Below, one piece after another: positions 14,674 to 50,046 of a stretch of 64,000 bases of DNA. The stretch spans positions 415,184 through 479,183 of the forward strand of contig VMEP01000001.1 in the NCBI GenBank assembly GCA_007375595.1, written 5' to 3'. The notes beneath the pieces were generated by a model, which was not told where the DNA came from, searched no databases, and saw only the letters and a program-made list of their open reading frames with translations. Made by a program: the position numbers and the translations under genes. Origin of the DNA: Parcubacteria group bacterium LiPW_30 (GTDB lineage Bacteria; Patescibacteriota; Minisyncoccia; Phycocordibacterales; VMEP01). Numbering within the stretch: the first letter of the stretch is position 1; every line of letters starts with the position of its first letter.

Positions 14674-15159
14674 TTGGAGAATTCCATGGGCAATATTGTT
14701 TCTTCTGGTTTCCCGATTCACCTTGCGTATACGCTCTCGGTCGCCATAGTTGAGGCGATGCAGGGCGGGCGCGATTTTGTCGGCAAGAACGACCTAAAGC
14801 GACTCCTTGAGTGGTATCAGGGCGCTGCTTATCCCTATAATGCCACCTTGTTTTCACGGGGCGGCGAAAGCGATGAGGGACAAGCGCTCTATATTTTGAT
14901 GCGACGCGCCCACGTGGAAAACGCCGTGAATGGGGTTCGAAGAAGGTCTTCGCTCTTTGGTCGTGTCATGGCGTTTATCCGTAGGTTTCCACGCGAAACA
15001 TATTCACATCACGATGCCTACTTCGCCCTCAACTTTTTCAATGACCTTGCTTCCGGAATAAGGGAGTACAGAGCTTCGGTTAGGCGGAGAAAGATGTTGG
15101 CGATGGCGCGGGGGAATGTTGTAAGGCTCAAAAACAGGATGGAACAGGCGCGAGTCTAA
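14674..15159 (+). CDS. hypothetical protein (GC-rich ORFan, ~55% GC)
   Basis: No motif. Strong GC3 bias, unlike the neighbours. Followed by a terminator. Confidence 0.45.
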   Translation: MENSMGNIVSSGFPIHLAYTLSVAIVEAMQGGRDFVGKNDLKRLLEWYQGAAYPYNATLFSRGGESDEGQALYILMRRAHVENAVNGVRRRSSLFGRVMAFIRRFPRETYSHHDAYFALNFFNDLASGIREYRASVRRRKMLAMARGNVVRLKNRMEQARV

Positions 15160-15177
15160 AATTCTGTAGATGTATAA

Positions 15178-15206
15178 AAGGGAGCACCAGTCGCTCCCTT
15201 TTTTAA
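15178..15206 (+). terminator. rho-independent terminator
   Basis: gggagcaccagtcgctccc followed by ttttttaatttt. Confidence 0.6.
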
Positions 15207-15240
15207 TTTTAAAAAAAGATTTTCAGCTTATGTTAATATC

Positions 15241-16209
15241 GTGGAAATGAAGGGATTTTGGAAAAATTTAAAAAAGCCATTTTTTGTTTTGGCGCCAATG
15301 GCCGATGTCACCGACGCGGCTTTTCGTCAGATTATTGCGAAGTATGGCAAACCTGATGTTTTTTGGACAGAGTTTGTTTCCGCTGATGGGTTGTGTAGCC
15401 CTATTGGTCGAGAGAAACTTTTAATTGATCTTGCTTACACAGAAGAAGAACGACCAATTGTTGCGCAAATTTTTTCGTCTAATCCAGATAATATCCGCGA
15501 GACGGCAAAACTAATTAAAGAGCTGGGTTTTGATGGGCTTGATATAAATATGGGTTGCCCAGATAGAACAATAGAAAAACAAGGCGCGGGAGCTTCTTTG
15601 ATGAAGAATCCAAAACTTGCACAAGAAATAATTCTTGCCGCCAAAGAAGGCGCAGGGGATATGCCAGTGTCTGTTAAAACTCGACTCGGATACAACAAAG
15701 ATATTTTGGAAGAGTGGTTGCCGGCGCTACTTGAAGCTCGCCCCGCGGTTATCACCGTGCACGCACGAAATAGAAAAGAGTTATCTGATTTTCCAGCGCG
15801 CTGGGAGATGGTTAAACGTGCCGTTGAAATTCGCGATGAGTTGAAAAGTGAAACGCTGATTATTGGCAATGGTGATGTTAAAGATATTAAGGACGCCGAA
15901 ATGAAAGTAAAAGAAACTGGCGCCGACGGCGTAATGCTTGGGCGGTCAATTTTTGGTAATCCGTTTCTTTTTAATCGTAAGCAAAAAGAAGTTGATATAA
16001 AAACGAGATTAGAAATTATGGTTGAGCATACAAAACTTTTCGAAGAGCTTTTCAATGGCAAGAAAAATTTTGCAGTAATGAAAAAGCACTATAAAGCATA
16101 TGCTCACGGATTTATCGGCGCTAAAGAGCTTCGAGTAGAACTAATGGAAACAAAAAACGCTAAAGAGGTGGAGGGGATTGTGGAGAAATTTCTAGGTGGT
16201 AGTCTGTAG
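15241..16209 (+). CDS. tRNA-dihydrouridine synthase
   Basis: LAPMADVTDAAFR, NMGCPDR..KQGAGASLM and VSVKTRLG..ITVHARNR match the Dus family TIM barrel, with a C-terminal helical domain. Confidence 0.9.
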   Translation: MEMKGFWKNLKKPFFVLAPMADVTDAAFRQIIAKYGKPDVFWTEFVSADGLCSPIGREKLLIDLAYTEEERPIVAQIFSSNPDNIRETAKLIKELGFDGLDINMGCPDRTIEKQGAGASLMKNPKLAQEIILAAKEGAGDMPVSVKTRLGYNKDILEEWLPALLEARPAVITVHARNRKELSDFPARWEMVKRAVEIRDELKSETLIIGNGDVKDIKDAEMKVKETGADGVMLGRSIFGNPFLFNRKQKEVDIKTRLEIMVEHTKLFEELFNGKKNFAVMKKHYKAYAHGFIGAKELRVELMETKNAKEVEGIVEKFLGGSL

Positions 16210-16234
16210 AAAGTAAAACGACGGAGGGTTCATT

Positions 16235-16762
16235 ATGAAATCAATTTTGACGCATCTTAATGGCGCGTTACAGCGCCTTGAGGAACGGCCTTATTTAGCC
16301 AATAGTATGTTTCCCGCCGAGATGGATAATTTCTGGAAGGGTGAAAAGCTTTTGTCTGCCGAGATTCAGATTCCTCGCTTAGAAAAATATTTGGAAAGCG
16401 AGGAAGGACAGATAGCCACTAACCTTTTCAAGCAGGTCTGGGAATTGTCCAGTACGATAAATTGGTGTCGACCCGAAAAGGAAGGGTGGTTACACTGGCG
16501 GGTTTTTCTGTATAGGGGTGAGCCACGCAGTGGCCTAAACAGGGCGGAAATAATTTGGTTTGGCGGAAACGGCCTGGAAATGTATTTTGCAGAAAGAGGG
16601 TCGCATAATTACCAAACCAAGCCCACAACTGCGCGCGAACTGGTTACTCGTGTTGCTTTCAATGATAGCAATTGGGACCAGGCTGGTATCTCAAGGCCAG
16701 AGCAAATTGTGCCCTACATCAGACTGAAGACGCTGGACTTGGTTCGTTACCTGAACCGCTAA
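16235..16762 (+). CDS. hypothetical protein (moderately GC-rich)
   Basis: 175-aa ORF with no motif, followed by a clear terminator. Confidence 0.5.
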   Translation: MKSILTHLNGALQRLEERPYLANSMFPAEMDNFWKGEKLLSAEIQIPRLEKYLESEEGQIATNLFKQVWELSSTINWCRPEKEGWLHWRVFLYRGEPRSGLNRAEIIWFGGNGLEMYFAERGSHNYQTKPTTARELVTRVAFNDSNWDQAGISRPEQIVPYIRLKTLDLVRYLNR

Positions 16763-16896: not shown

Positions 16897-17373
16897 TTGT
16901 TTATGAAAGAAAGGAATCTTTTTCTCGTTACTATAATCATAGTTGTTGGTGTTGTTTTGTTGTTTATATACAAAAAAGATTTAATTGAGAAAATTCAAGT
17001 TTTTAAAAAAGATACAACAGTTACGCAAGAGCCAGTAAGAACAGATTTTGGTTCTAATGTTCCCGCCGATTTTCCGGCAGACATTCCCATCGAAGAGGGG
17101 GTAAAAACCGAGCAGAGCTATAGCCTGAATTATGTCGGACAAAAACAACTGACTATTGTTTTTATTTCAACCAAGACAGTGAAAGAGAATTACGCGTTCT
17201 ACGCCGATTTTCTCGCGAAGCAGGGCTGGAACGTTTCCAATAAATTCGAAAGCCCGAAACTATCCTCTCTGTATGGCACGAAAGAGAGTAATGATATTAA
17301 CGTGACCATCAGCGAAAAGAAGTTAGATGCTTCAGTAAAATCACAAGTAAGTATTAGTTTCTTAAAAAAATGA
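16897..17373 (+). CDS. membrane-anchored hypothetical protein
   Basis: N-terminal TM helix LFLVTIIIVVGVVLLFI. Translationally coupled (ATGA overlap) to the following glycine-rich giant gene. Confidence 0.55.
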   Translation: MFMKERNLFLVTIIIVVGVVLLFIYKKDLIEKIQVFKKDTTVTQEPVRTDFGSNVPADFPADIPIEEGVKTEQSYSLNYVGQKQLTIVFISTKTVKENYAFYADFLAKQGWNVSNKFESPKLSSLYGTKESNDINVTISEKKLDASVKSQVSISFLKK

Positions 17374-19289
17374 TTAATATAATTCGTACAATTTTTGTTG
17401 GAATAATTCTATTTTTAATAAATCCAGGTGTTTCTTTTGGCGCATCAATTAAAACATACACTGATTCTTCTGGTTTAAACCCTCGTTCCTCCCCACCATA
17501 TGTTGGCGGCTATGTCGTAGAGACGTTTACTTCATCGGGGACTTTTACTCCACCTGCTGGAGTCACCTCCGTGGATTACCTTGTTGTTGCCGGTGGTGGA
17601 GGCGGAGGCTCTGTTAATGGTGGGGCTGGTGGGGCTGGTGGTTTTCGAACTGCTAGTAATTATGTTGTGGTACCAAATAACCCAGTGACCGTCGTTGTTG
17701 GGGCTGGTGGGGCGAAAGGTAATCCATACGGTGGGAATAATGGATATGATTCTATTTTTGATTCTATTATATCGATAGGTGGTGGCGGTGGCTCTGGTGG
17801 TGGAGGTGCTGTTGAGGCAAAGGTTGGTGGTTCTGGTGGTTCGGGTGGATATTGGGTTTCTGGCGCTGCTGGCACCTCGGGGCAAGGTTATGCGGGTGGC
17901 ACTGGTGCTGGTGGATATCCAATAACTGGTGCTGGTGGAGGTGGAGGTGCCGGGGAAGCAGGAGACTCCCCTTTGTATGATTACACAGCAACTGATGGGG
18001 GTAATGGGCTTTCTTCTTTTATATCCGGGGTTAATACTTATTATGCTGGCGGTGGTGGCGGATGGGGGTGGGAGCAAGAACTTAGTTTAGAAAGAGATGG
18101 ACTCGGGGGCTTGGGTGGTGGCGGTTCAGGTAGAGTTAGCGGAGATGCAGGCGATGGTAGCGTAAACACTGGCGGTGGTGGCGGTGGTTCAAGTGAAAGT
18201 GGTGGCAACGGCGGGTCCGGCATCGTCATATTGAGGTACCGTAGCCCAGGTACTGTAAACATTACCTCAAGTATTTCATCGTCTTGGGTGGTTACCGGCC
18301 CGGCGACGATTACCGGCTCGGGCACCTCGCAGTCCTCGCCATCACAGCCCGCAGGAACATACACCATCACCTGGGGCGAGGTGTCCGGTTACACCGCTCC
18401 TGCGACTCAGAGCCTCACACTCGCTTCTGCTGGCACAATCACGTTTAACGGTACTTATGTGGCATTAACACCACCAACTACCACTTTCTCTGCTTCGCCA
18501 GCAACTATTTCGTATAACACATCCTCAACACTTAATTGGAGTTCAACAGATGCAACATCTTGTACTGCCGGGGGTGATTGGTCGGGAACAAAAGATATAT
18601 CAGGTAGTGTTAGTACTGGAAATTTAACAACATCTAAAACATACACACTCTACTGTACGGGCCCTGGAGGAAATTCTGTTACACAATCAGCGGCGGTAAC
18701 AGTAGAATCAAACCCACCAACTACTTCAATCACTAGTCCAACAATCGACATCACAATCCCTGAAAACCAAGAGCAACAATTTACAGGAGAAGCAGTAGAC
18801 ACAGATGGGACGATAGTTGGATATCAATGGAGAATGGGAAATTGTACAACAGGTACCGTTCTTAGTTCTTTGATAAGTTTTGCCAGATCATTTACACCAG
18901 GAACATATGATGTTTATTTCAGGGCCCAAGATAACAACGGGTTTTGGTCATTAGATTGCCCGACACGCAGAATTGATGTTGTCGTAAGTAATCAAATACC
19001 TGGTGTTTGCGGGGCTTCTAATGGTGTGCCAACTCAAAAGAAACCAACGTCAAATCTTTGTAGTACAGTAGGCTTACCGGAACCCGTTGTCTCGCCGGAA
19101 AATATTAGTGTCTTACCAGAAAGCGGCAACCCTTCTTCATGGTCATGGACATGCTCTGGAGAAAACGGTGGCGCAGATGCTGCTTGTGGAACCGCGACTT
19201 CGTGTGGTGATAATAAATGCCAGGCATCTAAAGGAGAAAACCCCTCAACATGTAAGGCTGATTGCAAGATAAAGTTTTTTGAGTTTTAG
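17370..19289 (+). CDS. secreted glycine-rich repeat protein with Ig-like middle domains and a Cys-rich C-terminal module
   Basis: Signal peptide. Gly-rich block with VDYLVVAGGGGGGS..GGAGGAGG..GGNGGSGIVILRY (glycine-rich-protein type repeats). Then Thr/Ser-rich beta domains. C-terminus has 10 Cys (CGASNG..LCSTVG..WSWTCSGENGG..ACGTATSCGDNKC..CKADCK). Confidence 0.75.
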   Translation: MINIIRTIFVGIILFLINPGVSFGASIKTYTDSSGLNPRSSPPYVGGYVVETFTSSGTFTPPAGVTSVDYLVVAGGGGGGSVNGGAGGAGGFRTASNYVVVPNNPVTVVVGAGGAKGNPYGGNNGYDSIFDSIISIGGGGGSGGGGAVEAKVGGSGGSGGYWVSGAAGTSGQGYAGGTGAGGYPITGAGGGGGAGEAGDSPLYDYTATDGGNGLSSFISGVNTYYAGGGGGWGWEQELSLERDGLGGLGGGGSGRVSGDAGDGSVNTGGGGGGSSESGGNGGSGIVILRYRSPGTVNITSSISSSWVVTGPATITGSGTSQSSPSQPAGTYTITWGEVSGYTAPATQSLTLASAGTITFNGTYVALTPPTTTFSASPATISYNTSSTLNWSSTDATSCTAGGDWSGTKDISGSVSTGNLTTSKTYTLYCTGPGGNSVTQSAAVTVESNPPTTSITSPTIDITIPENQEQQFTGEAVDTDGTIVGYQWRMGNCTTGTVLSSLISFARSFTPGTYDVYFRAQDNNGFWSLDCPTRRIDVVVSNQIPGVCGASNGVPTQKKPTSNLCSTVGLPEPVVSPENISVLPESGNPSSWSWTCSGENGGADAACGTATSCGDNKCQASKGENPSTCKADCKIKFFEF

Positions 19290-19476: not shown

Positions 19477-19905
19477 ATGCATACTGTGCGTAGGTCGGAA
19501 GAGGTGAAGTTCTTTGCCAGAGTCGAACGTCGCCGAGAAAGAATAATCGACTGTGTCGCCATTGTCACAGTCGTTAGGTCCCAGTACGGAATTCACACCG
19601 AGGTTGATGTCGTCTTATATCGCCTCAACCGGAGAGAAGTTCGTTTTGGAGGCAAAGAGACGTTCGAGTTGGTACGCTTTTTGCCACAGGACAAAGAGTT
19701 AGCTTTTAATTTCTTCCCACATGGACCACCGTTTTTGAACAGCGGTCCGGCGTGGAAGGAAACCACTGGCTGGCTTGCCCCTGTAATTGATTCGTACAGG
19801 ACAATTTATGACCCTGGTTTGGTGATAGTAGAAGAGTATCCTCAAAAAATACTACCCACACCTTTTAGGCCGAGTGCATGTCCAGATCTTCGCGTTTTAC
19901 GTTGA
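19477..19905 (+). CDS. hypothetical protein (GC-rich islet)
   Basis: ORF within the 19.47-20.94 kb segment of ~55-58% GC. No motif. Confidence 0.4.
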   Translation: MHTVRRSEEVKFFARVERRRERIIDCVAIVTVVRSQYGIHTEVDVVLYRLNRREVRFGGKETFELVRFLPQDKELAFNFFPHGPPFLNSGPAWKETTGWLAPVIDSYRTIYDPGLVIVEEYPQKILPTPFRPSACPDLRVLR

Positions 19906-20030: not shown

Positions 20031-20534
20031 ATGAAAAATCGTACAGTAGCAACGAACTCACTTTCCGTGACGCCAGCGGTGATGTTCGACCTCGAAAAGA
20101 GGATTGTGGCGTACATGAAGGGGGCCGAATGGCGGAAACTCATCCACCCGAATATCGGAGAAGATTTCTTTGTTCCGATGTGGAGGAAGGGGAAGGACGT
20201 CCATGGCGGTTTCGGCAAAAACGGGTTCATCGAAATCGAGAAGAATCCCGTTTTCGGGAAAAAGGACATTGTCCGCGTCGTCGCACTCAAGCAGGCGGTC
20301 GCGAACAGCATGGACCCGTCGATCTCCACCTTGGGCGGGAAGAAAGATATCGTTCAGGTCATCAAGGACTGGTCGCTTATCTCGATTCCCGATTCGGCCA
20401 AGATCAAGGTGATCGAGCACCGCGCTGAATGTGTCAAAGACAGCGCGAAGCGGGCGAAGTTGCCGTTGTCGGACCGCTCCGTTGCGTACAGTTCGCACGG
20501 TGGCACCTCCACCTCGGCGGGGATTACGGCTTAG
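20031..20534 (+). CDS. hypothetical protein (GC-rich islet)
   Basis: aagaaggaag RBS 8 nt upstream of ATG. This is one of several overlapping long ORFs in all frames caused by the high GC. This frame has the most protein-like composition and the RBS. Confidence 0.4.
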   Translation: MKNRTVATNSLSVTPAVMFDLEKRIVAYMKGAEWRKLIHPNIGEDFFVPMWRKGKDVHGGFGKNGFIEIEKNPVFGKKDIVRVVALKQAVANSMDPSISTLGGKKDIVQVIKDWSLISIPDSAKIKVIEHRAECVKDSAKRAKLPLSDRSVAYSSHGGTSTSAGITA

Positions 20535-20678
20535 CTTTCGAGCTTTAGCCGATCATTGGTCCGTCTCATCTTCTAGGTGAGGCGGGCCATTTCATTGCTT
20601 GCGCATATAATTGTTTTTGGTTAGTATATGCGCTTGCCGAAGTTCAACAGTAGTACAACCAGAAGAGGAGAAGCACAG

Positions 20679-20867
20679 ATGCATCAACAAGGTTCGGGTT
20701 CATCGCGCAGCTTCAATGCCCGTCGCGCGAACTATTTCGCGCGTCAGGGGACGCAAGCACAGCCGTTGTCGGGTGGAGCAGGGGTCGCCGCAAATGATCC
20801 CAAAGCCACTTCCGGCGAAGAAGAAATCGTCGTCGATTCCAAGGAGTCGTCGGCCAAAAAGCAATAA
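20679..20867 (+). CDS. small hypothetical protein (62 aa; GC-rich islet)
   Basis: gaggag RBS precedes the ATG. Low-complexity S/G/A-rich product. Followed by hairpin ccggccgtaggccgg. Confidence 0.3.
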   Translation: MHQQGSGSSRSFNARRANYFARQGTQAQPLSGGAGVAANDPKATSGEEEIVVDSKESSAKKQ

Positions 20868-22202: not shown

Positions 22203-23027
22203 ATGTTAGTTACCAATAAAACAAAAATTCTTTCCCCTGTTAAACTAGCACCATATTTTCAAGAGGATAATTTTGTTCTATACAATAGCGACTCAATTAT
22301 TTTACTGAATCAATTACCAGAAAGTTCAGTAGATATGATATTTGCGGATCCTCCATACAATCTTTCGAATGACGGTTTTAGCGTACATGCTGGGCGAATG
22401 GTAAGTGTTAATAAAGGCGATTGGGATAAAAGTAAAGGATTCCAAGACGATTATGCCTTCCACTATCGTTGGATGGAAGCTTGTAGGCGAGTTCTTAAGC
22501 CAAACGGCACACTTTGGGTAAGCGGTACTTATCACTCAATTTACCAATGTGGACATGCCCTTCAATCACTCAGTTATCATATTTTGAATGATATAAGTTG
22601 GTTTAAACCAAACGCTTCACCGAATTTGAGCTGTAGATTTTTTACGGCAAGCCACGAGACACTTATTTGGGCGAGGAAAGAAAAAAAGGCAAAACATAAT
22701 TTTAACTATGATTTAATGAAAAACGGGGAATGGCCTGAGGATAAATTAAAGAAACCAGGTCTTCAAATGAGATCCGTTTGGTCTATGGGGACTCCTCGCC
22801 CCGAAGAGAAAAAATATGGTAAGCACCCAACACAAAAACCTCTAGATTTGCTCAAAAGAATAATTTTAGCAAGCACAAACAAAGGAGATGTTGTTTTAGA
22901 TCCGTTTACAGGTAGTTCTACTACCGGGATTGCGGCGGTGATGTACGAGAGAAAATTTATTGGAGTAGATCTTGAAAAAAAGTACCTTGATTTATCTGTT
23001 AAAAGATTTAATGATTTAAAAAAATGA
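22203..23027 (+). CDS. DNA methyltransferase, beta class (DPPY motif; N6-adenine or N4-cytosine)
   Basis: Motif IV IFADPPYNL precedes motif I VVLDPFTGSSTTG (the beta-class permutation). HPTQKP is also present. Confidence 0.85.
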   Translation: MLVTNKTKILSPVKLAPYFQEDNFVLYNSDSIILLNQLPESSVDMIFADPPYNLSNDGFSVHAGRMVSVNKGDWDKSKGFQDDYAFHYRWMEACRRVLKPNGTLWVSGTYHSIYQCGHALQSLSYHILNDISWFKPNASPNLSCRFFTASHETLIWARKEKKAKHNFNYDLMKNGEWPEDKLKKPGLQMRSVWSMGTPRPEEKKYGKHPTQKPLDLLKRIILASTNKGDVVLDPFTGSSTTGIAAVMYERKFIGVDLEKKYLDLSVKRFNDLKK

Positions 23028-23548
23028 TTAACAAAGGAAAAGGGGGAGGTAATACAATAACAGGACTTAATTTTGAAAAGGAAAAAGATATTCTTTCTCT
23101 TCTTAAAACTAAGAAAGGATATAGTGTTAAAGGAACAGCTATCTTTTATAACGGGAAGGAAGTTGCGAGGAACTATAAGAAAAATGCTCTATATAAATTT
23201 CTAGAATCTGAGAAGATAGATTACAAGAAAATTCTTTCTAAAAAACTTCTCCCCGATGAAGCTTTATATGTAATTGTTAATAACACCCTATTTATTATAG
23301 AGCTTAAGTTTCAGAAAGTAGCTGGGTCAGTCGATGAAAAATTACAGACATGTGATTTCAAAAGAAAACAGTATGCAAAATTGATGGCACCATTGAATAT
23401 AGAAGTTGAATATATCTATGTTTTAAGCGATTGGTTTAAAAAACCAGAATATAAAGATGTGCGAGATTATATAATTTCCGTAGGATGTCAGTATTATTTT
23501 GATTATCTTCCTCTACAAAAACTTGGGTTGCCTGTTCCACAAGATTAA
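23024..23548 (+). CDS. putative Type II restriction endonuclease (PD-ExK)
   Basis: Start overlaps the MTase stop (ATGA). PD..(E)xK signature LPDEALYVIVNNTLFIIELKFQK. 174 aa, otherwise novel. Confidence 0.5.
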   Translation: MINKGKGGGNTITGLNFEKEKDILSLLKTKKGYSVKGTAIFYNGKEVARNYKKNALYKFLESEKIDYKKILSKKLLPDEALYVIVNNTLFIIELKFQKVAGSVDEKLQTCDFKRKQYAKLMAPLNIEVEYIYVLSDWFKKPEYKDVRDYIISVGCQYYFDYLPLQKLGLPVPQD

Positions 23549-23574
23549 ATTTATTTTTTACAATCTTGGACGGA

Positions 23575-23615
23575 CAGTCTGTTTGAGATGGGTTCAGACT
23601 CTGAAGAAAATCGAA
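23575..23615 (+). promoter_or_regulatory. conserved upstream box (copy E): cagtctgtttgagatgggttcagactctgaagaaaatcgaa
   Basis: Homologous to 24852-24888 (tcagtttgagataagttcggactccgaagaacgtat). Both lie 5-15 nt before a start codon. It shares the YTCNGARGAAcgtcg core with the boxes at 24115 and 25813. Confidence 0.4.
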
Positions 23616-23619
23616 AAAC

Positions 23620-24105
23620 ATGGCGCAAATAATCAAAAAAGTATTTCATTGGCTTGGAACATTCCTTTGGAAGGATAAAACTTTAGCAATTATGGGTATT
23701 GTAATTGGGGTACTCGGCATTTATTTAGCTATAGATGCAAATAAAAGAACGGAAAAAGCTGAGGTTTTGCAAAAAATATCAGAGAAAAGCTATTTCGAGA
23801 CGACCTATAAGAAGATTTTCTTCAGTATTCCAATAGGAAATGGAATAGAAGATTTTAAAAAATTACCTAAAGAAACAGTAAATTCAATTCTGAATGACGC
23901 ACTCAGCGACATAGAATCGCAAATGAATAATAAATATCTTATTTCTAATACCGACTGCTTTAATAGTTGGAAGAGTTTTCAAGAATTTTTATATTTAGCC
24001 ATCAGATCTCCGGAAACTTTTGATTCTATGGGACCAGAACATAGCATCGCAAAGAACTATTACGCAAAATTGGATCCGCTATTGAATTATTGCCATAGTC
24101 TATGA
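23620..24105 (+). CDS. hypothetical membrane-anchored protein
   Basis: One TM helix (LAIMGIVIGVLGIYLAI). No motif. Confidence 0.5.
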   Translation: MAQIIKKVFHWLGTFLWKDKTLAIMGIVIGVLGIYLAIDANKRTEKAEVLQKISEKSYFETTYKKIFFSIPIGNGIEDFKKLPKETVNSILNDALSDIESQMNNKYLISNTDCFNSWKSFQEFLYLAIRSPETFDSMGPEHSIAKNYYAKLDPLLNYCHSL

Positions 24106-24153
24106 TTTTACCTATTCTGAGGAACGTCGGAGGGGCGGAATAAAAGTAATCAA

Positions 24154-24198
24154 AAAAGCCTTGTGGAGTTTGGTGGTATAATTTACGAGACCGAGGAG
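24154..24198 (+). promoter_or_regulatory. conserved promoter-like module P (copy A) with extended -10 TGGTATAAT
   Basis: aaaagccttgtggagtttggtggTATAATttacgagaccgaggag, preceded at fixed 26-nt spacing by box ttctgaggaacgtcgga (24115-24131). Confidence 0.5.
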
Positions 24199-24275
24199 AT
24201 CATCTTAAAACGACAACAGGCAATAGGAGGCCTTCGAGATTCGAGAGGAGATTCTAGTCATAAGTTTGTGTATAA

Positions 24276-24821
24276 TTGTCTATTATGGCAATCAAAAAAA
24301 CATCAGAGATTGGTAGTAAAGTAATCCGCTCTCGATCAAAAGAAGTTGAAAAAATAACTTCTTTGAGAGTTAAGAAAATAATAGTTGATCTCGTGGATAC
24401 TATGAGACATGTGAATTTGGTTGGTATGGCGGCACCCCAAATTGGAATAGGAAGTAGAATTTTTGTTACTGAAATTAGGAAAACAATAACACGAAAAAAT
24501 ATTTCTAAACCTGACCCACTTAAGGTTTTTATCAACCCCGAAATAACTAAGACATCAAAGAAACTTGTTGATGGATATGAGGGTTGCGGAAGCGTCGCCT
24601 CGGGGGGATTATTTGGAATCGTGAGAAGACCAGAAACTGTTTCCGTTCGAGCTTTTGATGAAACAGGTGAAGAATTTGAGTTAGAGACTTCTGGGTTGTT
24701 AGCAAGAATTATTCAACATGAGATTGACCATCTTGATGGAATTTGTTTTATTGATAAGGTTACAGACACTAAAAAATTGTTAGGTCGTCAAGAATATATC
24801 AAAATGGGAAGAAAAAAGTAG
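24276..24821 (+). CDS. def: peptide deformylase
   Basis: All three PDF motifs: GMAAPQIG, EGCGS, HEIDHLDG. Confidence 0.9.
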   Translation: MSIMAIKKTSEIGSKVIRSRSKEVEKITSLRVKKIIVDLVDTMRHVNLVGMAAPQIGIGSRIFVTEIRKTITRKNISKPDPLKVFINPEITKTSKKLVDGYEGCGSVASGGLFGIVRRPETVSVRAFDETGEEFELETSGLLARIIQHEIDHLDGICFIDKVTDTKKLLGRQEYIKMGRKK

Positions 24822-24851
24822 GCCGGACTTTTTTTAGAGAAAAGAATCTAA

Positions 24852-24888
24852 TCAGTTTGAGATAAGTTCGGACTCCGAAGAACGTATA
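24852..24888 (+). promoter_or_regulatory. conserved upstream box (copy F)
   Basis: See copy E. Follows the def terminator ggccggacttttttt. Confidence 0.4.
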
Positions 24889-24892
24889 TTTT

Positions 24893-25795: not shown

Positions 25796-25851
25796 TAATA
25801 AATCGACTCTCATTCAGAGGAACGTCGAAATGGTACGATTAGAGATGTCAG

Positions 25852-25897
25852 AAAAGCCTTGTGGGGCTTGATGGGCAAATATACGAGACCGAAGAGG
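25852..25897 (+). promoter_or_regulatory. conserved promoter-like module P (copy B)
   Basis: aaaagccttgtggggcttgatgggcaaatatacgagaccgaagagg, preceded at 26-nt spacing by box ttcagaggaacgtcgaa (25813-25829). Confidence 0.45.
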
Positions 25898-26005
25898 CCA
25901 GTTTTTGAGCTGTTTTCTAGGGGTTATTCGTGCGAGGAATGATAAAGTAGTACTATAAAGCGACAAAGTTGTGTGTTTCGTTTGATAAACTTTTGGAATA
26001 AATTT

Positions 26006-26287
26006 ATGAACAATAAAGAAGCTAAAGCACGAATCAGAATAAACAGTCTACTCCAACAGTCTGGCTGGAGGTTTTTTGATGACGAAAACAGCAAGGCAAA
26101 CATTGCTCTAAATAAACTTTCAAAAAAATCAGTTGATGAATTAGGAAACGATTTTGAAAAAACAAAGAACAATTTTACCGATTTTCTTCTTCTTGATGAA
26201 AAAGGTTTCCCCTATGTTGTGTTTGCTGCAAAATCAAGCGCCGAACTGTTCGAGTTAAAAATAAAATCAAAAATCGATGAATTATGA
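26006..26287 (+). CDS. small HsdR_N-like (type I restriction R-subunit N-terminal nuclease-like) domain protein, catalytic Glu apparently replaced
   Basis: EAKARIRINSLLQQSGW and DFLLLDEKGFPYVVFAAK align to the EcoKI HsdR N-terminal motifs ESRFLIDAQLRKAGW and DYVLFVGLKPIAVVEAK. The ExK glutamate aligns to Ala. Start taken at the ATG at 26006. Confidence 0.5.
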   Translation: MNNKEAKARIRINSLLQQSGWRFFDDENSKANIALNKLSKKSVDELGNDFEKTKNNFTDFLLLDEKGFPYVVFAAKSSAELFELKIKSKIDEL

Positions 26288-34683: not shown

Positions 34684-35046
34684 TCAAGCCGCCTTTCGGT
34701 CGGCCCTTTCTCTTTCTCTATCCTCTTTTTCCCACTCACGTCTCATTTCTTCTTCAAGGTCTCGGAGACGTTCTGGGTATTCAGGGTAGTGGCGTTTTTC
34801 TACCCACACGTGACTTTTTTCTCCGTTTTGTTTCGATACGTAGACATAAGCCTCGTAGTAATCGCCAGGGCTTATGGATTCGTTGCAGTACGAGCAGTCG
34901 TGGTGTTGCCATGCGATTCGATCGTAACGACGGAGAAGACGAGTGTAGTTTCTGTATGATCGGTCATTGGCCTCAGATGGAGAATCCCAGCTTTGGATAT
35001 CTACACGAAGTGGTTTTGCCACTTCATGCAAAATGATTTCATGCAT
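34684..35046 (-). CDS. hypothetical protein (GC-rich ORFan)
   Basis: 120 aa, ~50% GC, C-terminal charged ERERADRK tail. No motif. Confidence 0.4.
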   Translation of the reverse strand: MHEIILHEVAKPLRVDIQSWDSPSEANDRSYRNYTRLLRRYDRIAWQHHDCSYCNESISPGDYYEAYVYVSKQNGEKSHVWVEKRHYPEYPERLRDLEEEMRREWEKEDRERERADRKAA

Positions 35047-35148: not shown

Positions 35149-35652
35149 TTAGGGCTTCTCCACGGGCTTTCTTTGGAGAAATGTTTTTGCTTTTTCGAGA
35201 ACTTTCAGGCCGTACCTTGTGACGGGCGAAAGGATTTCGCTGTCACCAAGCTCAAAGCGAACGCCAGAACGATTGGCTGTAGTTACGAACCAGTCAATCG
35301 TGAGAAAGGTGTACCCATTCCAGTCTTTTTCTGGCATCGTGAGCAAGGGCGTCGTCCAGAGATTCAACAGCCGAAGTCTGAGGCTTTCGGTCGTAATCCA
35401 AGACTGCTCACTTCGCGAGAAGGTGAAGCTTCCTGCACCAGGAAAGCCAATTCGTTTTTTATCGAGAATGAAACGAACGGTTTTTGTGTCGGTGTTGTTG
35501 TGCTTGGAGAACGGGCCATACTGGGGTGAACACTCGAAAATGTCCTCGCGGGCGATTAACCCATCAAGAAAATCATATTGAGAAAAGCTTTGTCCCAATG
35601 CCAAGATTGGCAGTGACGGTATTACAGCAATATCGTTCATGGGTCCCCCCAA
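35149..35652 (-). CDS. hypothetical protein (GC-rich ORFan)
   Basis: 167 aa. Followed on the minus strand by hairpin cccgccgatactcggcggg. Confidence 0.4.
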   Translation of the reverse strand: MGGPMNDIAVIPSLPILALGQSFSQYDFLDGLIAREDIFECSPQYGPFSKHNNTDTKTVRFILDKKRIGFPGAGSFTFSRSEQSWITTESLRLRLLNLWTTPLLTMPEKDWNGYTFLTIDWFVTTANRSGVRFELGDSEILSPVTRYGLKVLEKAKTFLQRKPVEKP

Positions 35653-38355: not shown

Positions 38356-38676
38356 ATGAATTCGAAAACCACCACCGGCCACGGCCAAAATGGCACTGTT
38401 GCGCACCCGAAGCTTTCCGTCATCTTCGCCAACGGCGCCGCCGGCTTCTCCGATCGCTCGATCCTCAAGCACGATGGCTGGAAGAAGCACTCCGGCAAGG
38501 CGCCGGTTTCCGGCACGATGGTCCATACGCTGCACAGCCAGAAGATCGAAGGGACCGATTCGTTCGCCATTTGTCGTGAAGGCGACCAAATCGACGGCCA
38601 GGTCCTCTCTGCCACCAAGGCCGAACTCGAGGTCCTGATGGCCGGCTTCGGCTACGAGCTCAAGCTCAAAGCTTGA
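38356..38676 (+). CDS. hypothetical protein (106 aa; ~60% GC islet)
   Basis: GGAGG RBS 8 nt upstream. Very strong GC3 codon bias, foreign to this genome. Followed by a terminator. Three other overlapping frames are also open because of the GC content. Confidence 0.45.
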   Translation: MNSKTTTGHGQNGTVAHPKLSVIFANGAAGFSDRSILKHDGWKKHSGKAPVSGTMVHTLHSQKIEGTDSFAICREGDQIDGQVLSATKAELEVLMAGFGYELKLKA

Positions 38677-38717: not shown

Positions 38718-38746
38718 CAAGACGCCCAAGGCGTCTTTTTTTGTTT
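38718..38746 (+). terminator. rho-independent terminator
   Basis: aagacgcccaaggcgtctttttttg. Confidence 0.65.
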
Positions 38747-39868: not shown

Positions 39869-40396
39869 ATGAAGAAAAGAGTCGAAATTCTTGTCGGCGC
39901 CAAAGAAGCTTTTTTCCATGCGATGTCGCTTGGATGGGCATCTGGGTCAAAGGCCGCCGCAAAGGTGGTGGATGTTTTGGGAAGTTCTGGTGGCGAGGAA
40001 ACCGCCTACATCACAGGACTTCTGTACAAGAATGAGTGGTTCCGCGTCGTTGACCGCTACTGTGTTTCAGAGGCGGGTAAGTCTGCCGGCACAACGACCA
40101 TTTGGTTCCACAATGATCCAGTTTGGTTTATGAGCTACGGCGGTTCCTACCTGAAGGAGGATATCCCTTTTCTGAAGGATGCACTCATGCGTGTTTACTC
40201 CACGAAGCAGTTTTTCGGAGGGCGAGGTCCGACTAGTCTTGCCCAAGGGGTACCGCATCTCAAGAGTGGCGTCCTTGTCTACGCAAACGAAATCGAGAAG
40301 GATAGCACTTTCGACAAGTTTCGTGGAAAAGAGGCGATCATCGGCCCAGTCGGTATTCGTGGTCAACATGATTACTGGGGGATGGCCCTTATCTAG
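39869..40396 (+). CDS. hypothetical protein (GC-rich ORFan, ~52% GC)
   Basis: AGGAGG RBS 8 nt upstream of the ATG at 39869. Followed by a terminator. Confidence 0.45.
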   Translation: MKKRVEILVGAKEAFFHAMSLGWASGSKAAAKVVDVLGSSGGEETAYITGLLYKNEWFRVVDRYCVSEAGKSAGTTTIWFHNDPVWFMSYGGSYLKEDIPFLKDALMRVYSTKQFFGGRGPTSLAQGVPHLKSGVLVYANEIEKDSTFDKFRGKEAIIGPVGIRGQHDYWGMALI

Positions 40397-40425: not shown

Positions 40426-40457
40426 GCGCCCCGGTTTATCCGGGGCGCTTTTGTTTT
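40426..40457 (+). terminator. rho-independent terminator
   Basis: gcgccccggtttatccggggcgc followed by ttttgtttt. Confidence 0.7.
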
Positions 40458-40885: not shown

Positions 40886-40888
40886 ATT

Positions 40889-44666: not shown

Positions 44667-45614
44667 TTGACACAGTGCTATTTTTGTGCTAGTTTGTCGA
44701 TAGAGATCTTAACATTCGATTTATTTTTTGAGGAGAGTCCTTTGTTAGACACACAACTTGAGGCGTTAACTCAAAGGGTCCGCGAGACACTTTTGGCCGG
44801 TCGTGTCGTCGTGATTATGGGGTGGAGAGTAAACCATCACACCCCATTTACTAAAAGTTTGCCGGAAAGAAAGGTTCGATTTTATCTAAATGACAGGCCA
44901 CCGAAATCACTTAGTGGTACGGTTGGCCTAGTGCTTTATCCCGAATATTTGTCACACCGTGATGTGGAACGGCTAAAGAGAGGGTTAAACAGTAGGATAG
45001 TTTATCCGATTGTAGTGCATTATCGGACAATCATATCAACAATAGAATCCTGTAAGGATTTGATGGTTGTTCAGCCATGCACTTGCGCCAACCTCCAGTG
45101 CGACGAAACAAGAGCGGTGACCAAAGTAGAGCCCGCGGTCGGAGCGATACCTTTGATTCAGGATTTGAGCGAAGATGTTCTTGATTTTTTGACAACTCCA
45201 CCTTTGAAGGAGAAACACGAAATGAACAAAATGGAATGTTTTGCTAAAGCGTTTCTAGAAGCTGCCACGTCCGACGGCGAAGGCCGTGTTGGCAAGGTAA
45301 CACTGGGGAAACTTCGCACGCAGTGTGGTGTTGAAGAATCCGTTTCGAAACTTATCCGCGATGGCTGGCTTGAGTCGGTCGTAACGCCGGGTAAGCAAAA
45401 GGCTGGCTGGTATAAGGCCGGCCAGACGATGCTTCAAAGCAGTGCTGATCAGAAGAATGTTGAACCCGAAGATCCGTACGAGCTGGCGAAATTTCTTGTC
45501 GCCCAGAAACCTGGGGTTCTTGCCGAGTTCGCCGAAGCTGAAAAAAAGCTCGCAAGGATTGAACTTGCGGAAAAAGTACTCGAACAGCTAGCCGGCCTCA
45601 AGAAGTCGGAATAG
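44667..45614 (+). CDS. hypothetical protein (GC-rich ORFan, ~50% GC)
   Basis: Long ORF with no motif. A possible internal TTG start after a GAGGAG RBS near 44740. Followed by a terminator. Confidence 0.4.
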   Translation: MTQCYFCASLSIEILTFDLFFEESPLLDTQLEALTQRVRETLLAGRVVVIMGWRVNHHTPFTKSLPERKVRFYLNDRPPKSLSGTVGLVLYPEYLSHRDVERLKRGLNSRIVYPIVVHYRTIISTIESCKDLMVVQPCTCANLQCDETRAVTKVEPAVGAIPLIQDLSEDVLDFLTTPPLKEKHEMNKMECFAKAFLEAATSDGEGRVGKVTLGKLRTQCGVEESVSKLIRDGWLESVVTPGKQKAGWYKAGQTMLQSSADQKNVEPEDPYELAKFLVAQKPGVLAEFAEAEKKLARIELAEKVLEQLAGLKKSE

Positions 45615-45673: not shown

Positions 45674-45840
45674 TTGAAAGGATGAATTATTGTGTAAAAA
45701 AATACAAAGAATATTTTGATTTGATATACTTAATGTATTAAAAATTAATCTAAAAATTTAAATTTTATGGCAAAAGGAAACGATCGCCCACGTAAGGAAA
45801 AAAAGAAACCAAAGAAGAATAAGTAGTAATGATAGGAACA

Positions 45841-45911
45841 GAAAATCCGCCCAGCACTTAATTTTCAAATCGAGTTTGTCTAATTTAAAATTAAGTGCTG
45901 GGCGGATTTTC
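45841..45911 (+). other. perfect 25-bp inverted repeat (long hairpin, 21-nt loop) followed by a T-run
   Basis: gaaaatccgcccagcacttaatttt ...21 nt... aaaattaagtgctgggcggattttc, then ..gattttttacgg. It lies downstream of a 19-codon basic sORF (45767-45826) and upstream of cspA. Confidence 0.7.
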
Positions 45912-46017
45912 TAATTCTTGATTTTTTACGGCTTTTATGTTATACATATAGGCAAGCACAGGAGCAGAGTCGAGTTTCGTAGTAGCAATTTAAGCAGCAA
46001 TAAATATAGAAATCAAT

Positions 46018-46215
46018 ATGCAAGGAACAATCAAGACTATCACGGATAGAGGATTTGGATTCATTTCTCGCGAAGGCGAGGCAAAGGATCTTTTCTTTCA
46101 TTCGAAAGAATTGAATGGTGTCACATTTGACGAACTAAAAGTTGGCGATGTCGTTAGCTTTGAAGTTGTTGACGGTGAAAAAGGACCATCAGCTACAAAC
46201 GTATCACGCGTATAG
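46018..46215 (+). CDS. cspA: cold-shock protein (CSD)
   Basis: GTIKTITDRGFGFISREG..DLFFH: RNP1/RNP2 motifs of the cold-shock domain. Confidence 0.9.
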   Translation: MQGTIKTITDRGFGFISREGEAKDLFFHSKELNGVTFDELKVGDVVSFEVVDGEKGPSATNVSRV

Positions 46216-47797: not shown

Positions 47798-47825
47798 ATT
47801 CTAGTATTTTGCAAAATACTAGAAT
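47798..47825. promoter_or_regulatory. 28-bp perfect palindrome, putative ArsR-family operator overlapping the -35 of the arsR-like gene promoter
   Basis: attctagtattttgcaaaatactagaat. A -10 ggTGtATAATtt follows 18 nt downstream, and the regulator gene starts at 47870. Confidence 0.6.
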
Positions 47826-47869
47826 AGATAAACGGGGTGGTGTATAATTTATTTACTAAATATAAATAG

Positions 47870-48142
47870 ATGGCTATCAATTACCGGAAAATTGAAAGAA
47901 TTATTAAAGGGTTTGCCAACCATAGGCGGATTCAAATTCTCGATGTATTGAAAAAAGAACCAGAGCTTTCAGTGGACGATATAGCAAAGAAGCTTAATAT
48001 AGGGTATATGAACGCATCAGACCACGTACGCAAGATGACCATTTCTGGACTAGTCATAAAACGTAGCGATGGTAACAGTGTTCGCCACAAGTTAACACCA
48101 TTAGCAGAATCTATTCTAGTATTTTGCAAAAAACTAGAATGA
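47870..48142 (+). CDS. ArsR/SmtB-family transcriptional regulator
   Basis: FANHRRIQILDVLKKEPELSVDDIAKKLNIGYMNASDHVRKMTISGLV: ArsR HTH pattern. Confidence 0.8.
   Translation: MAINYRKIERIIKGFANHRRIQILDVLKKEPELSVDDIAKKLNIGYMNASDHVRKMTISGLVIKRSDGNSVRHKLTPLAESILVFCKKLE
48113..48139. promoter_or_regulatory. second copy of the operator palindrome (1 mismatch) inside the 3' end of the regulator gene, immediately before the flavoprotein start
   Basis: attctagtattttgcaaaaaactagaat. The regulator TGA (48140-48142) overlaps the downstream ATG (48139). Confidence 0.55.
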
Positions 48143-49392
48143 CTGTAAAAAATAAAAAAATAATTGATGTTGTTGTAATCGGTGGAGGACCAGCTGGGAT
48201 GATGGCTGCGGGGCGTGCGGCCGAACTTGGGCGTTCGGTTGTCCTTCTTGAAAAAAATCAGACACTCGGCAAAAAACTTTTAATTACTGGTGGCGGGAGG
48301 TGTAACGTCACAAACAACAAGAAAGATGTTCGCACCATGCTTTCTAAATACAAAGGAAGTGATAAATTTCTTTTCTCTGCTTTTTCTCGGTTTGGAGTGA
48401 GAGAGACTTTGGAATTCTTCAATAAACGAGGAATGGAAACTAAAGAGGAAAATGAAGGTAGAATTTTTCCAGCTTCAAATAAATCTCAATCTGTCTGGGA
48501 TGTTTTAGTAAAATATATGAAAGAAGGTAAGGTGAGAGTGCAGACAGACGCAGATGTTTCCGGGATATCTTTGGATAAAAAAACGAAGGATTTCTGTATC
48601 AAATTGAAAGACGGGCAAGAAATAATTGCGAAAAAATGTATTTTAGCAACCGGCGGAACTTCACACCCAGAAACAGGGTCAACCGGGGAAGGCTTCTCTT
48701 GGCTTAAAAAGTTGGGACATAAAACATCGGGGAGTAACGTGGCCCTTGTGCCTGTCCGTCTTAAAGATTTTTGGACAAAAGAATTAAGTGGAATAACTTT
48801 GTCTGATATTAAACTTACTGTATTTCAAAACAACGAAAAACGCGGAGTAGAAAAAGGGAAGTTATTGTTTACCCACTTTGGTATTAGTGGACCAACAGTT
48901 TTAAACATGAGCAAAGACATAGGTGAATATGTTCAGTATGGTGAAGTTCGGATTGATATTGATTTATTTCCAAAACTAGACCACAAGGAGTTAAAGAAAA
49001 AACTCCAAGATATCTTGGTAAAAGAGAGTAATAAAAAATTAAAAAATACTATCGACAAATTAGTTCAATCGGCACTCGGAAAAGCTATACTCGAAATCGC
49101 AAAGATAGATGGCGAAACTTTTAACCACAGCGTGAGTAGTGAAGACAGAATTAAATTGGTAGCAATAATGAAAGCTCTCTCACTCAATGTTAAAGGACTA
49201 CTTGGTGCTGACAAGGCTATTGTTACGTCTGGTGGAGTTTCTTTAGAGGAAGTTGATTTTAAAACAATGCAATCGCGAATAGTGCCAAACCTTTATTTGG
49301 TTGGGGATGTTTTAAATATTGATAGGCCGTCAGGAGGGTATAGCCTCCAGATTTGTTGGACCAGCGGGTATGTCGCAGGAAGTAATTGCTAA
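48139..49392 (+). CDS. FAD-dependent flavoprotein, HI0933/BaiN family
   Basis: DVVVIGGGPAGMMAAGRAAELGRSVVLLEKN..GKKLLITGGGRCNVTN N-terminal signature. The ORF track starts at an upstream TTG (48124); the ATG at 48139 is preferred. Confidence 0.85.
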   Translation: MTVKNKKIIDVVVIGGGPAGMMAAGRAAELGRSVVLLEKNQTLGKKLLITGGGRCNVTNNKKDVRTMLSKYKGSDKFLFSAFSRFGVRETLEFFNKRGMETKEENEGRIFPASNKSQSVWDVLVKYMKEGKVRVQTDADVSGISLDKKTKDFCIKLKDGQEIIAKKCILATGGTSHPETGSTGEGFSWLKKLGHKTSGSNVALVPVRLKDFWTKELSGITLSDIKLTVFQNNEKRGVEKGKLLFTHFGISGPTVLNMSKDIGEYVQYGEVRIDIDLFPKLDHKELKKKLQDILVKESNKKLKNTIDKLVQSALGKAILEIAKIDGETFNHSVSSEDRIKLVAIMKALSLNVKGLLGADKAIVTSGGVSLEEVDFKTMQSRIVPNLYLVGDVLNIDRPSGGYSLQICWTSGYVAGSNC

Positions 49393-49437
49393 CGCTTAAA
49401 TTGAAATCAGACATGTCTATAAGTTAGAATATTAATT

Positions 49438-49800
49438 ATGAACGAACAACTTTCCACACAATTTGAAAAGAAAAGCGACCTTGAAGAGGCCGCATATGAC
49501 GCTAGATTAAGAAAAGATGTTATTTTGCCGAAAGAGGGAACTGGGGCTTATGAAGCTTTAGAAAAAACATGCAATGATTATTCAAATATTGTTGCTCAAG
49601 AAATGACTGCTTCTTCCCTTAAGTTTTTTGAGATAAGTGGTAAAAATAGAAGAGCTCTGCACGCAGAGCTCTGTGTAAAACTTTATGGCACGTCTTGGCA
49701 GGAAACCTCCCGAGACGATACTGACGCTGCTAGACGTTTTGCCCACTATGTCGCTGGGCGTCCTTCGTTTGCAGAGGACTTAAACACTGGCGGGCATTGA
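49438..49800 (+). CDS. hypothetical protein
   Basis: 120 aa, no motif. Stop shares the palindromic TGATCA with the convergent gene. Confidence 0.45.
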   Translation: MNEQLSTQFEKKSDLEEAAYDARLRKDVILPKEGTGAYEALEKTCNDYSNIVAQEMTASSLKFFEISGKNRRALHAELCVKLYGTSWQETSRDDTDAARRFAHYVAGRPSFAEDLNTGGH

Positions 49801-50046
49801 TCAGCACTCCACTTCGTCGCCGATGTATTGAAACCTCTTGCCTTCGACCGTGACAACGGTCTTGAAAGTGCCGTCGCCCTGGTCAACGTTGAGCTGGCAG
49901 GTGTCGTACTTGGCTGAGCACAAGAGGAAACGCAGTTCCTCAAGCTCAATCCAGTAGCTTTTCTTGCTCCCGTTTTCATTGACGCGATTGCGGAGCTTTT
50001 CAAGCAATTTCTCCAGCTTTTTCTTGTCACCATGCGTCGTTGCCAT
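49801..50046 (-). CDS. hypothetical protein (GC-rich ORFan)
   Basis: 81 aa, ~52% GC. Confidence 0.4.
   Translation of the reverse strand: MATTHGDKKKLEKLLEKLRNRVNENGSKKSYWIELEELRFLLCSAKYDTCQLNVDQGDGTFKTVVTVEGKRFQYIGDEVEC

Follow-up and report, generated by a model that had tools for sequence, protein, structure and literature searches.

The stretch of DNA considered here, referred to as the window, comprises 64,000 nucleotides (nt) of the genome of Parcubacteria group bacterium LiPW_30 (assembly GCA_007375595.1, contig VMEP01000001.1, positions 415,184 to 479,183), and harbors eight GC-rich segments that contain eleven open reading frames (ORFs), here called islets and named i1 to i8, with i3a, i3b and i3c, and i4a and i4b, sharing a segment (Table 1). 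All eleven are real genes, most of them monocistronic, that encode small cytoplasmic proteins, and comparison with related genomes indicates that they are old residents of fixed chromosomal slots rather than recent arrivals. The current model, to which about an even chance is given, proposes that they are hypervariable, lineage-restricted genes held GC-rich in place by a gene-specific bias, either resembling GC-biased gene conversion (gBGC) or selective. The window itself was measured at 39.6% GC, above the value of about 37% assumed for the genome in the original prediction, and its intergenic DNA at 36.7%. As a background, 72 non-overlapping ORFs of the window were selected greedily; their median GC is 38.4% and their median GC at third codon positions (GC3) is 0.32, with a median absolute deviation of about 0.05. 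Four tRNAs are the only Rfam or ARAGORN matches in the window. A contig from Hainich groundwater, L001, is nearly identical to the window contig.

Every segment is an outlier in GC and GC3 against the median of the window ORFs, so that the sharp rise in GC originally described is real. The range of 50–60% GC given for it applies to some of the segments, four of them lying at 47–48%, and the eleven ORFs span 47–60% GC with a GC3 of 0.44–0.79. The statement that all six frames stay open holds loosely, since frames with no more than one stop number four or five only in i3b, i3c and i5; the alternative frames of the remaining islets carry 3–26 stops, below ordinary genes. A GGAGG-like site 5–10 nt upstream of the start is found in ten of the eleven islets, the exception being i7, and a hairpin-plus-T-run terminator lies 3' of ten, the exception being i8, which bears out, for most of the genes, the description of them as usually having their own ribosome-binding site and terminator. 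Similarly, the proteins had been said to lack recognisable domains, and ten of them have no match in Pfam, NCBIfam, PHROGs or PADLOC; the eleventh, i6, belongs to the Pfam family DUF5680.

Table 1. Islets and other features of the window (positions of the window; aa, amino acids; cells are empty where no value applies).
Feature	Coordinates	Strand	Description	GC (%)	GC3	Start, terminator and other details
i1	14686..15159	+	157-aa orphan protein	51.9	0.58	ORF opens at TTG 14674, ATG 14686 likely start; terminator 15176-15202
i2	16235..16762	+	175-aa orphan protein, hypervariable slot after Dus	47.2	0.52	Shine-Dalgarno site GGAGGG
i3a	19477..19905	+	142-aa orphan protein	47.8	0.46	
i3b	20031..20534	+	167-aa orphan protein	54.8	0.75	ORF from 20028; terminator with 15-bp stem, 20557-20589
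i3c	20679..20867	+	62-aa low-complexity protein	55	0.56	ORF opens at 20628; Shine-Dalgarno site ahead of ATG 20679; cluster representative 62 aa
i4a	34684..35046	-	120-aa putative zinc-binding protein	47.1	0.44	terminator 34685-34656
i4b	35149..35640	-	163-aa orphan protein	48.4	0.54	segment to 35652; called as 163 aa in L001
i5	38356..38676	+	106-aa orphan protein, most GC-rich islet	59.8	0.79	Shine-Dalgarno site GGAGG; terminator 38719-38737
i6	39869..40396	+	175-aa DUF5680 protein, hypervariable slot	51.3	0.56	terminator 40426-40448
i7	44667..45614	+	orphan protein of ~315 aa	47.0	0.47	start uncertain
i8	49801..50046	-	81-aa orphan protein	51.2	0.71	abuts gene at 49438-49800, convergent
tRNA-Leu(CAA)	5510-5593	-	extra copies of its 3' 20-24 nt at 5211 and 5373			same terminator-like hairpin ahead of the 5211 copy (5170-5229) and of the gene (5470-5529)
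63-nt direct repeat	8293-8355, 8489-8551		98% identical, 196 nt apart			junction of genes 6741-8255 and 8481-10736 (topoisomerase I)
Glycine-rich protein gene	17370-19289		639 aa	48	0.32	GC at codon position 2, 0.61
Defence island	22203-29378		strain-specific DNA		0.23-0.44	
Repeated element	24114-24202, 25812-25900, 29964-30012		~85 nt at most, three copies			third copy aligns over 49 nt
Micro-ORF	45767-45826		19 aa, MAKGNDRPRKEKKKPKKNK			followed by hairpin with 34-nt arms (45840-45912)
Cold-shock gene	46018-46215				0.33	
32-nt palindrome	47798-47829, 48109-48140		two copies, 97% identical			brackets 90-aa HTH/MarR-like gene 47870-48142

Only three other ORFs of the greedy set reach at least 46% GC, and all of them were rejected as further islets. 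The one at 5329-5604 is a spurious ORF over the tRNA-Leu gene and two partial copies of it, which also explain the GC peak at 5170-5595. The ORFs at 10885-11349 and 17370-19289 owe their GC to codon position 2, in the second case through glycine GGN codons, and their GC3 is only 0.34 and 0.32, respectively.

In the islets, G and C at third codon positions are both raised, for every amino acid, and the encoded proteins are enriched in R, G, P, W and H and depleted in I, K and N. The GC step is abrupt at the start codon: nine of the eleven islets are preceded by 60 nt of 32–43% GC, and the opening 90 nt of the reading frame reach 46–61% GC in all except i7, whose GC climbs towards its 3' end. 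Codon adaptation of highly expressed genes was rejected as a cause, since every amino acid gains both G-ending and C-ending codons, and it is further countered by the low GC3 (Table 1) of the cold-shock gene, presumably a highly expressed one. Motif avoidance as an escape from an AT-specific nuclease was discarded as well, because a null model of shuffled synonymous codons left only a common depletion of TTA/TTAA. GC3-high outliers make up about 14% of the crude window ORFs; the corresponding share in other Parcubacteria loci of low GC is about 6%. Outlier ORFs of this kind occur in L081, L172, L165, L073, L057, L050 and other loci; of ten that were scanned, seven have no Pfam domain, and the others encode an inositol monophosphatase, an AIR-synthase-like protein and a collagen-repeat protein.

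The coding nature of the islets was assessed on congeneric contigs from four genomes of 38–40% GC (L013, L003/L014, L093 and L094), whose core proteins are mostly 92–99% identical to those of the window, with a core synonymous divergence (dS) of 0.2–0.9. Islets are found in the same slot and the same frame in 16 of the 18 slot-genome pairs, and their presence among close relatives is therefore not patchy, contrary to what repeated acquisition had led to expect. Their ratio of nonsynonymous to synonymous divergence (dN/dS) is 0.07–0.39, against 0.01–0.19 in neighboring genes, values that clearly reflect purifying selection. Length and frame are kept even at 34–48% identity. For most islets, GC content in the annotated frame is highest at codon position 3, intermediate at position 1 and lowest at position 2. 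It is flat over the three positions in i3c, which is the weakest coding case among the eleven; i3c is 81% identical in L013 (dN/dS 0.21) and only 54% identical over 31 aa in L014. No Rfam match lies inside the islets, and folding z-scores are -1.5 for i5, -0.5 for i8 and -3.6 for i3b, in the last case over a stretch that includes the stem of its terminator.

Two of the proteins gave confident AlphaFold2 models. The DUF5680 assignment of i6 rests on a match to PF18931 with E = 5.7e-7 (30.3 bits, against a cut-off of 25); its 32 homologue clusters are all from metagenome-assembled genomes (MAGs) or metagenomes, and 27 of them carry a precomputed PF18931 domain. The model of i6 (pLDDT confidence 92) consists of a duplicated helix-plus-antiparallel-sheet unit, for which Foldseek returned no significant neighbor in the PDB. 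The model of i4a (pLDDT 86) shows a small beta-sheet followed by a long helix, again with nothing significant in the PDB by Foldseek. The i4a protein, 70% identical in L093, harbors a C-x2-C...H...C motif and a conserved C-terminal Ala-Ala. Its family of about 28 clusters consists of proteins of 80–130 aa with R-x-x-R...C-x2-C...H...C in common, as well as a helical, acidic tail and a final residue that is always Ala and mostly part of Ala-Ala, so that they end much like a C-terminal degradation tag. Contexts were opened for two distant members, and both lie on contigs of the candidate phyla radiation (CPR).

The slots are also recognisable beyond the genus. The contig L097/L098 (43.7% GC, core proteins 84–91% identical to the window's) carries homologues of i1, i3a and i3b (43%, 37% and 34% identical) in the SerRS-Dus-dnaX neighborhood, and in L189 (47.6% GC, core proteins 64–77% identical) the gene order is SerRS, a 287-aa gene, Dus, an i2 homologue (44% identical), an i3a homologue (35% identical) and dnaX. 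As the same slots are occupied in the congeners and in these more distant relatives, the islet genes predate the genus. The orthologues of i1 sit between an FtsQ-like gene and Dus in L014 (86% aa identity), L013 (82%) and L098, with a dN/dS of 0.09–0.20. The i4b protein is 83% identical in L093 (GC3 0.60, dN/dS 0.20), and i5 is 78–79% identical in the same slot of L093 and L094 (dN/dS 0.28–0.39, dS 0.25–0.38). The i8 protein is 88% identical in L094 (dN/dS 0.07), and i7 is 85% identical in L093 (dN/dS 0.20). Only two absences were found among the congeners: i2 is missing from L013 together with the two genes that follow it, and i7 is missing from L094 with its terminator as a clean indel of about 1.06 kb that left no target-site duplication.

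Protein searches gave a similarly narrow distribution. Among 5.8 billion proteins, i5 has only six homologue clusters (68–98% identity), all from metagenomes or MAGs. Eight other islet proteins, queried as one concatenate against 1.84 billion representatives, gave 46 matches, falling in 1–5 clusters each (two for i1 and for i4b, three for i8) and about 28 for i4a. Contexts were opened for part of these matches, and each turned out to be a syntenic Parcubacteria contig or another CPR contig. No islet homologue was found within 10 kb of Dus or the ABC-F ATPase in 158 more distant Parcubacteria loci. Eighty metagenome ABC-F loci, all at most 76% identical and without islet homologues, served as a compositional comparison set. 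The islet families are thus restricted to one Parcubacteria clade, with i4a, which extends more widely over CPR contigs, and i6, through DUF5680, as partial exceptions.

The high GC content is a property of these genes in this genus and not of their protein families. GC3 is high in all congeneric orthologues, as in i5 (0.79/0.78/0.79), i3b (0.75/0.72/0.65) and i8 (0.71/0.68). In L189, the homologues of i2 and i3a have a GC3 of 0.54 and 0.57, against a background of 0.52–0.57; the DUF5680 homologue of L187 (51% GC) has 0.61, against 0.53–0.60; and i4a homologues match the composition of their own genomes in L100 (43% GC) and L101 (30% GC). The i8 homologue of L188, with 0.34, lies under its background of about 0.45. 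In L098 the i1 homologue is at background (0.46), and those of i3a (0.58) and i3b (0.61) are moderately raised. When normalised for GC, the dinucleotide signature of the islets lies slightly outside that of the core, with a distance (delta*) of 0.065 against a 95th percentile of 0.053 for same-sized core samples. Its distance to the home genus, 0.056–0.065, ranks 4 and 6 among 148 loci, and the higher-GC relatives are at 0.09–0.11. The signature is as near to the home genus as to any locus, which speaks for long residence.

Whether this composition is maintained or decaying was judged from changes polarised by three-taxon parsimony. At the fourfold-degenerate sites of the islets, 33 changes from AT to GC face 49 from GC to AT. 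This share of 40% exceeds the 21% predicted by background per-site rates (p = 6e-5) and is not significantly off balance (p = 0.10), the rate of AT-to-GC change per AT site being twice that of the background. The implied equilibrium GC at fourfold-degenerate sites (GC4) is 0.57 for the islets and 0.34 for the background. In i1 and i5, considered to have diverged in place because their dS is not above that of flanking genes, 12 changes towards GC face 16 towards AT, which implies an equilibrium of 0.68 and departs from the background regime (p = 6e-4). When every synonymous third position of the islets is counted, the totals are 70 and 83, and at codon positions 1 and 2 the islet equilibrium is 0.48 against 0.42 in the background (p = 0.04), a shift that agrees with the R/G/P/W-richer amino-acid composition. 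The GC content of the islets is not decaying at the rate predicted by the background regime, a conclusion held with moderate confidence, because the counts are small and based on parsimony.

Four slots stand apart by the depth of their alleles. In i2, i3a, i3b and i6, alleles of close relatives are only 43–52% identical and their synonymous divergence is saturated (dS 1.5 to more than 2), while dS is 0.3–0.9 in the flanking genes; in i1, i4b, i5 and i7 it is not above that of the flanks. The deep alleles occur in L014 for i2 (43% identical, dS 2.4, between flanking genes 90–97% identical) and for i3b (47%), in L013 for i3a (52%), and in L093 and L094 for i6, where they form a separate lineage 48% identical to the window allele; the two i6 allele classes are as distant as DUF5680 proteins of different families. 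The sharing is mosaic, the window allele of i3a resembling that of L014 (93% identical; dN/dS at this slot 0.07–0.19) and the window allele of i3b that of L013 (85%; dN/dS 0.22–0.28). Such divergence between alleles of close relatives points to allele replacement by homologous recombination in the hypervariable slots. DprA and a competence-type pilin are encoded beside islets in the window, and islet proteins evolve two to ten times faster than their neighbors.

These observations favor the alternative offered in the original prediction, namely that the islets are lineage-specific genes under an unusual compositional constraint. The proposed mechanism is a GC-favoring fixation bias that would act at the nucleotide level on recombination-prone islet genes. 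The first choice of cause would be GC-biased gene conversion tied to islet recombination, which would also account for the faster protein evolution and the shift to amino acids with GC-rich codons. The second would be selection on nucleotide or codon content, for example an enrichment in rare codons that throttles translation. Both gBGC and selection on GC content predict the same substitution pattern. Several points weigh against this explanation. The counts are small, with 82 polarised changes in total and 28 in the cleanest subset (i1 and i5), and three-taxon parsimony becomes biased when divergence is high. Changes towards AT are in mild excess, and the current GC4 of 0.67 stands above the implied equilibrium, so that slow decay is possible. 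Lassalle et al., in 2015, reportedly found bacterial gBGC effects of a few percent of GC3, and the GC3 excess of the islets, 0.13–0.48, is far above such effects. A sharp boundary at the start codon is unexpected under conversion, although an AT-rich composition is imposed on promoters and Shine-Dalgarno sequences in their own right. Moreover, over 102 other Parcubacteria loci GC3 outliers regress to the mean: loci with a median GC3 of 0.3–0.4 have 6.2% high and 0.8% low outliers, and high-GC loci 1.0% high and 5.1% low, a pattern more in keeping with gene exchange among genomes that differ in GC than with a universal force that drives GC upwards.

This regression keeps alive the strongest rival, which is regarded as possible but clearly less probable than the gene-specific bias. 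Under this proposal, transformation and recombination would pass the islet genes around among related Parcubacteria of 44–58% GC, their composition would be that of a shared pool of alleles, and the apparent substitutions would be imported differences. Relatives with the same gene order at 44%, 48% and 51% GC do carry homologues that match their own composition, and Parcubacteria of 58% GC occur at the same field site (PMC11188291). The deep allele classes with saturated dS in otherwise near-identical genomes would also be expected from such a pool, as would the variable presence of i7 and i2 and the recurrence of the i8 module in another context in L188. There, at positions 1957-2552 of a distant CPR contig, i8 and its convergent, abutting 120-aa neighbor recur as a pair between S1 and Cmk, which suggests a two-gene module that has moved between contexts. 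Against this proposal, i1, i4b, i5 and i7 have diverged in place, and i1 and i5 are still GC-favoring. In addition, none of the higher-GC contexts opened yielded a homologue above 50% identity, the GC3 of i3b, i5 and i8 (0.71–0.79) is above the background of every sampled relative (maximum 0.60–0.62), and the dinucleotide signature of the islets is nearest to the home genus.

It has also been considered that the islets are relics of a GC-richer ancestor, from which the genus drifted or was streamlined to low GC while rarely expressed accessory genes escaped. Successive outgroups are indeed GC-richer (44%, 48% and 51%), the GC3 of i2 and i3a in the window (0.52 and 0.46) is near that of their L189 homologues (0.54 and 0.57), and one Parcubacteria genus at the same field site is reported to have lost GC from soil to groundwater (PMC11188291). 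Nevertheless, this origin is judged unlikely, as GC3 is higher here than in higher-GC relatives for i1 (0.58 against 0.46), i3b (0.75 against 0.61–0.64) and i8 (0.71 against 0.34). A mutational shift should be tracked faster, not slower, by fast-evolving genes, and other fast-evolving genes of the window have an ordinary GC3 of 0.26–0.33. The low GC of the intergenic DNA speaks against relics too, as does the AT-biased mutation that is general in bacteria.

The explanation first advanced, by which single genes would have been imported recently and repeatedly from non-CPR donors of high GC, for instance an actinobacterial host, is now very improbable. It drew on the atypical composition of the islets and on the way each gene stands alone, equipped with a Shine-Dalgarno site and a terminator of its own, and the variable presence of i7 and i2 would agree with it. 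However, it fails the test set for it in the original prediction, because the best matches are confined to close relatives: in both protein collections, with contexts partly opened, they led only to Parcubacteria or other CPR contigs, MAGs and unassigned metagenome contigs, and no homologue was traced to Actinobacteria or any other such donor. Searches of PHROGs and PADLOC gave nothing at E <= 0.01 except a match of i4a to phrog_7314, of unknown function (E = 0.009), scans of IMG/VR for close relatives with i7 and i3b found nothing, and i7 has no match in the PDB by sequence, in IMG/VR, or in phages and plasmids by tblastn. The slots are occupied throughout the genus and beyond it, no signature of amelioration is seen, and the islet flanks contain no shared repeat family, att-like sites or mobility genes. 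Least credible of all, and practically dismissed, is the possibility that the GC-rich segments are non-coding, either structured RNAs or spurious ORFs open through scarcity of stops, since the nearly stop-free frames of i3b, i3c and i5, the flat composition of i3c and the folding of i3b with its terminator are set against codon periodicity in the annotated frame of most islets, a frame and length conserved in relatives with dN/dS below 0.4, the lack of Rfam matches, the weak folding of i5 and i8, the Pfam match of i6 and the models of i6 and i4a.

That a gene-specific, GC-favoring process, gBGC or rare-codon selection, holds dispersed, hypervariable genes for small proteins at a GC3 of up to 0.8, against about 0.3 elsewhere, is put forward tentatively, with less assurance than the preferred reading as a whole. 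If true, it would be by far the strongest gene-scale gBGC-like effect in a bacterium known to us, and the genes that serve an uncultivated episymbiont in conflict or in interaction with a partner could be picked out by base composition alone. The idea that islet proteins act in conflict or in interaction with a partner is speculation, prompted by their small size, rapid evolution, deep allele classes and variation in presence. The window is an enriched example of a broader, undescribed tendency in low-GC Parcubacteria and not a unique case. Should the pattern be genome-wide and extend to other low-GC Parcubacteria, composition-based calls of horizontal gene transfer (HGT) in CPR genomes would be misleading, and GC3 would be a cheap flag for the fast-evolving, recombining small proteins likeliest to mediate interactions with hosts, phages or competitors in organisms not yet open to culture. 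The pattern would then also provide a natural test case for biased gene conversion versus selection on GC content in bacteria.

The truly strain-specific DNA of the window is the defence island, which is largely unmatched in relatives. It encodes an N6/N4 DNA methylase, a PD-(D/E)XK nuclease, an AbiH-like protein and an 815-aa AAA_21/SMC ATPase, and with its low GC3 it is not GC-rich. Relatives hold other defence genes nearby (RadC, AIPR, MutH and Dcm in L003; Z1 and Mrr in L001). Thus the GC-rich islets are old and syntenic, whereas the strain-specific island is compositionally ordinary. The three copies of the repeated element lie upstream of genes in and beside the island and carry a GAGG site as well as an extended -10 box, TGGTATAAT; in L003 the different island is likewise flanked by copies, and the element may be a portable promoter or a recombination anchor.

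Further features of the window lie apart from the islets. The partial copies of tRNA-Leu, with the hairpin shared by one of them and the gene, look like att-site scars of integrative elements. The glycine-rich protein has an N-terminal hydrophobic stretch, possibly a signal peptide; only its C-terminal 410 aa align to the L014 orthologue (55% identity), and the gene is absent from L013. A 63-nt direct repeat lies at the junction of the topoisomerase I gene and the gene before it (Table 1). The DNA of the 19-aa ORF is identical in three species while the surrounding spacers diverge, and it is followed by a terminator that in the window is enlarged to a long-armed hairpin; it may encode an unannotated, very basic micro-protein. 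The cold-shock gene has a dS of about 0–0.02 against two relatives, compared with 0.4–0.6 in its neighbors, and a nearly invariant 5' leader, which indicates that synonymous sites or RNA structure are strongly constrained, or that a sweep occurred recently. The two palindromes that bracket a small helix-turn-helix (HTH) gene are probably an operator for its autoregulation and for the downstream HI0933-like flavoprotein gene.

The islets resemble several known systems and agree fully with none. Atypical composition is routinely taken as a mark of recent HGT, and orphan genes are expected to be AT-rich; neither rule holds for them. According to the model of Lawrence and Ochman, horizontally acquired genes of atypical composition are said to ameliorate over time. 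Like such genes, the islets have an atypical base and codon composition and form units with their own signals, and two of the eleven vary in presence; unlike them, they have no identifiable donor, are syntenic well beyond the genus, lack mobility genes and att-like repeats, and show near balance in place of the roughly fourfold excess of GC-to-AT changes expected from the background regime. Integron gene cassettes were rejected as a parallel, because the islets are scattered singly among housekeeping genes, share no 3' repeat and have 3' hairpins that are ordinary terminators. Bacterial ORFans are also short, fast-evolving, devoid of recognisable domains, narrow in lineage and sometimes variable in presence. 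They are typically AT-richer than their own genome, for instance in E. coli (PMC3514957; review PMC12315717). The islets are reversed in sign, with 8–20 more points of GC and 0.13–0.48 more GC3, stable across species. Membership of i6 in DUF5680 is above the gathering threshold and uninformative on composition, as members elsewhere match the GC of their own genomes.

Closer to the preferred reading is gBGC in recombining bacterial genes, in which, as in the islets, a raised GC3 accompanies signs of recombination, proteins that evolve faster and a shift to amino acids encoded by GC-rich codons. The islets differ in that the effect is an order of magnitude larger than bacterial gBGC is said to produce, concerns single short genes and has a sharp 5' boundary, and in that their link to recombination derives from a few divergent alleles. 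For rare-codon selection, an analogy is offered by Streptomyces, where the bldA-dependent TTA codon provides rare-codon control of a special gene set. There too a small accessory or regulatory set is enriched in codons rare in the genome, although the polarity in the islets is the opposite, with GC-ending codons in a low-GC genome, and codon positions 1 and 2 are shifted as well.

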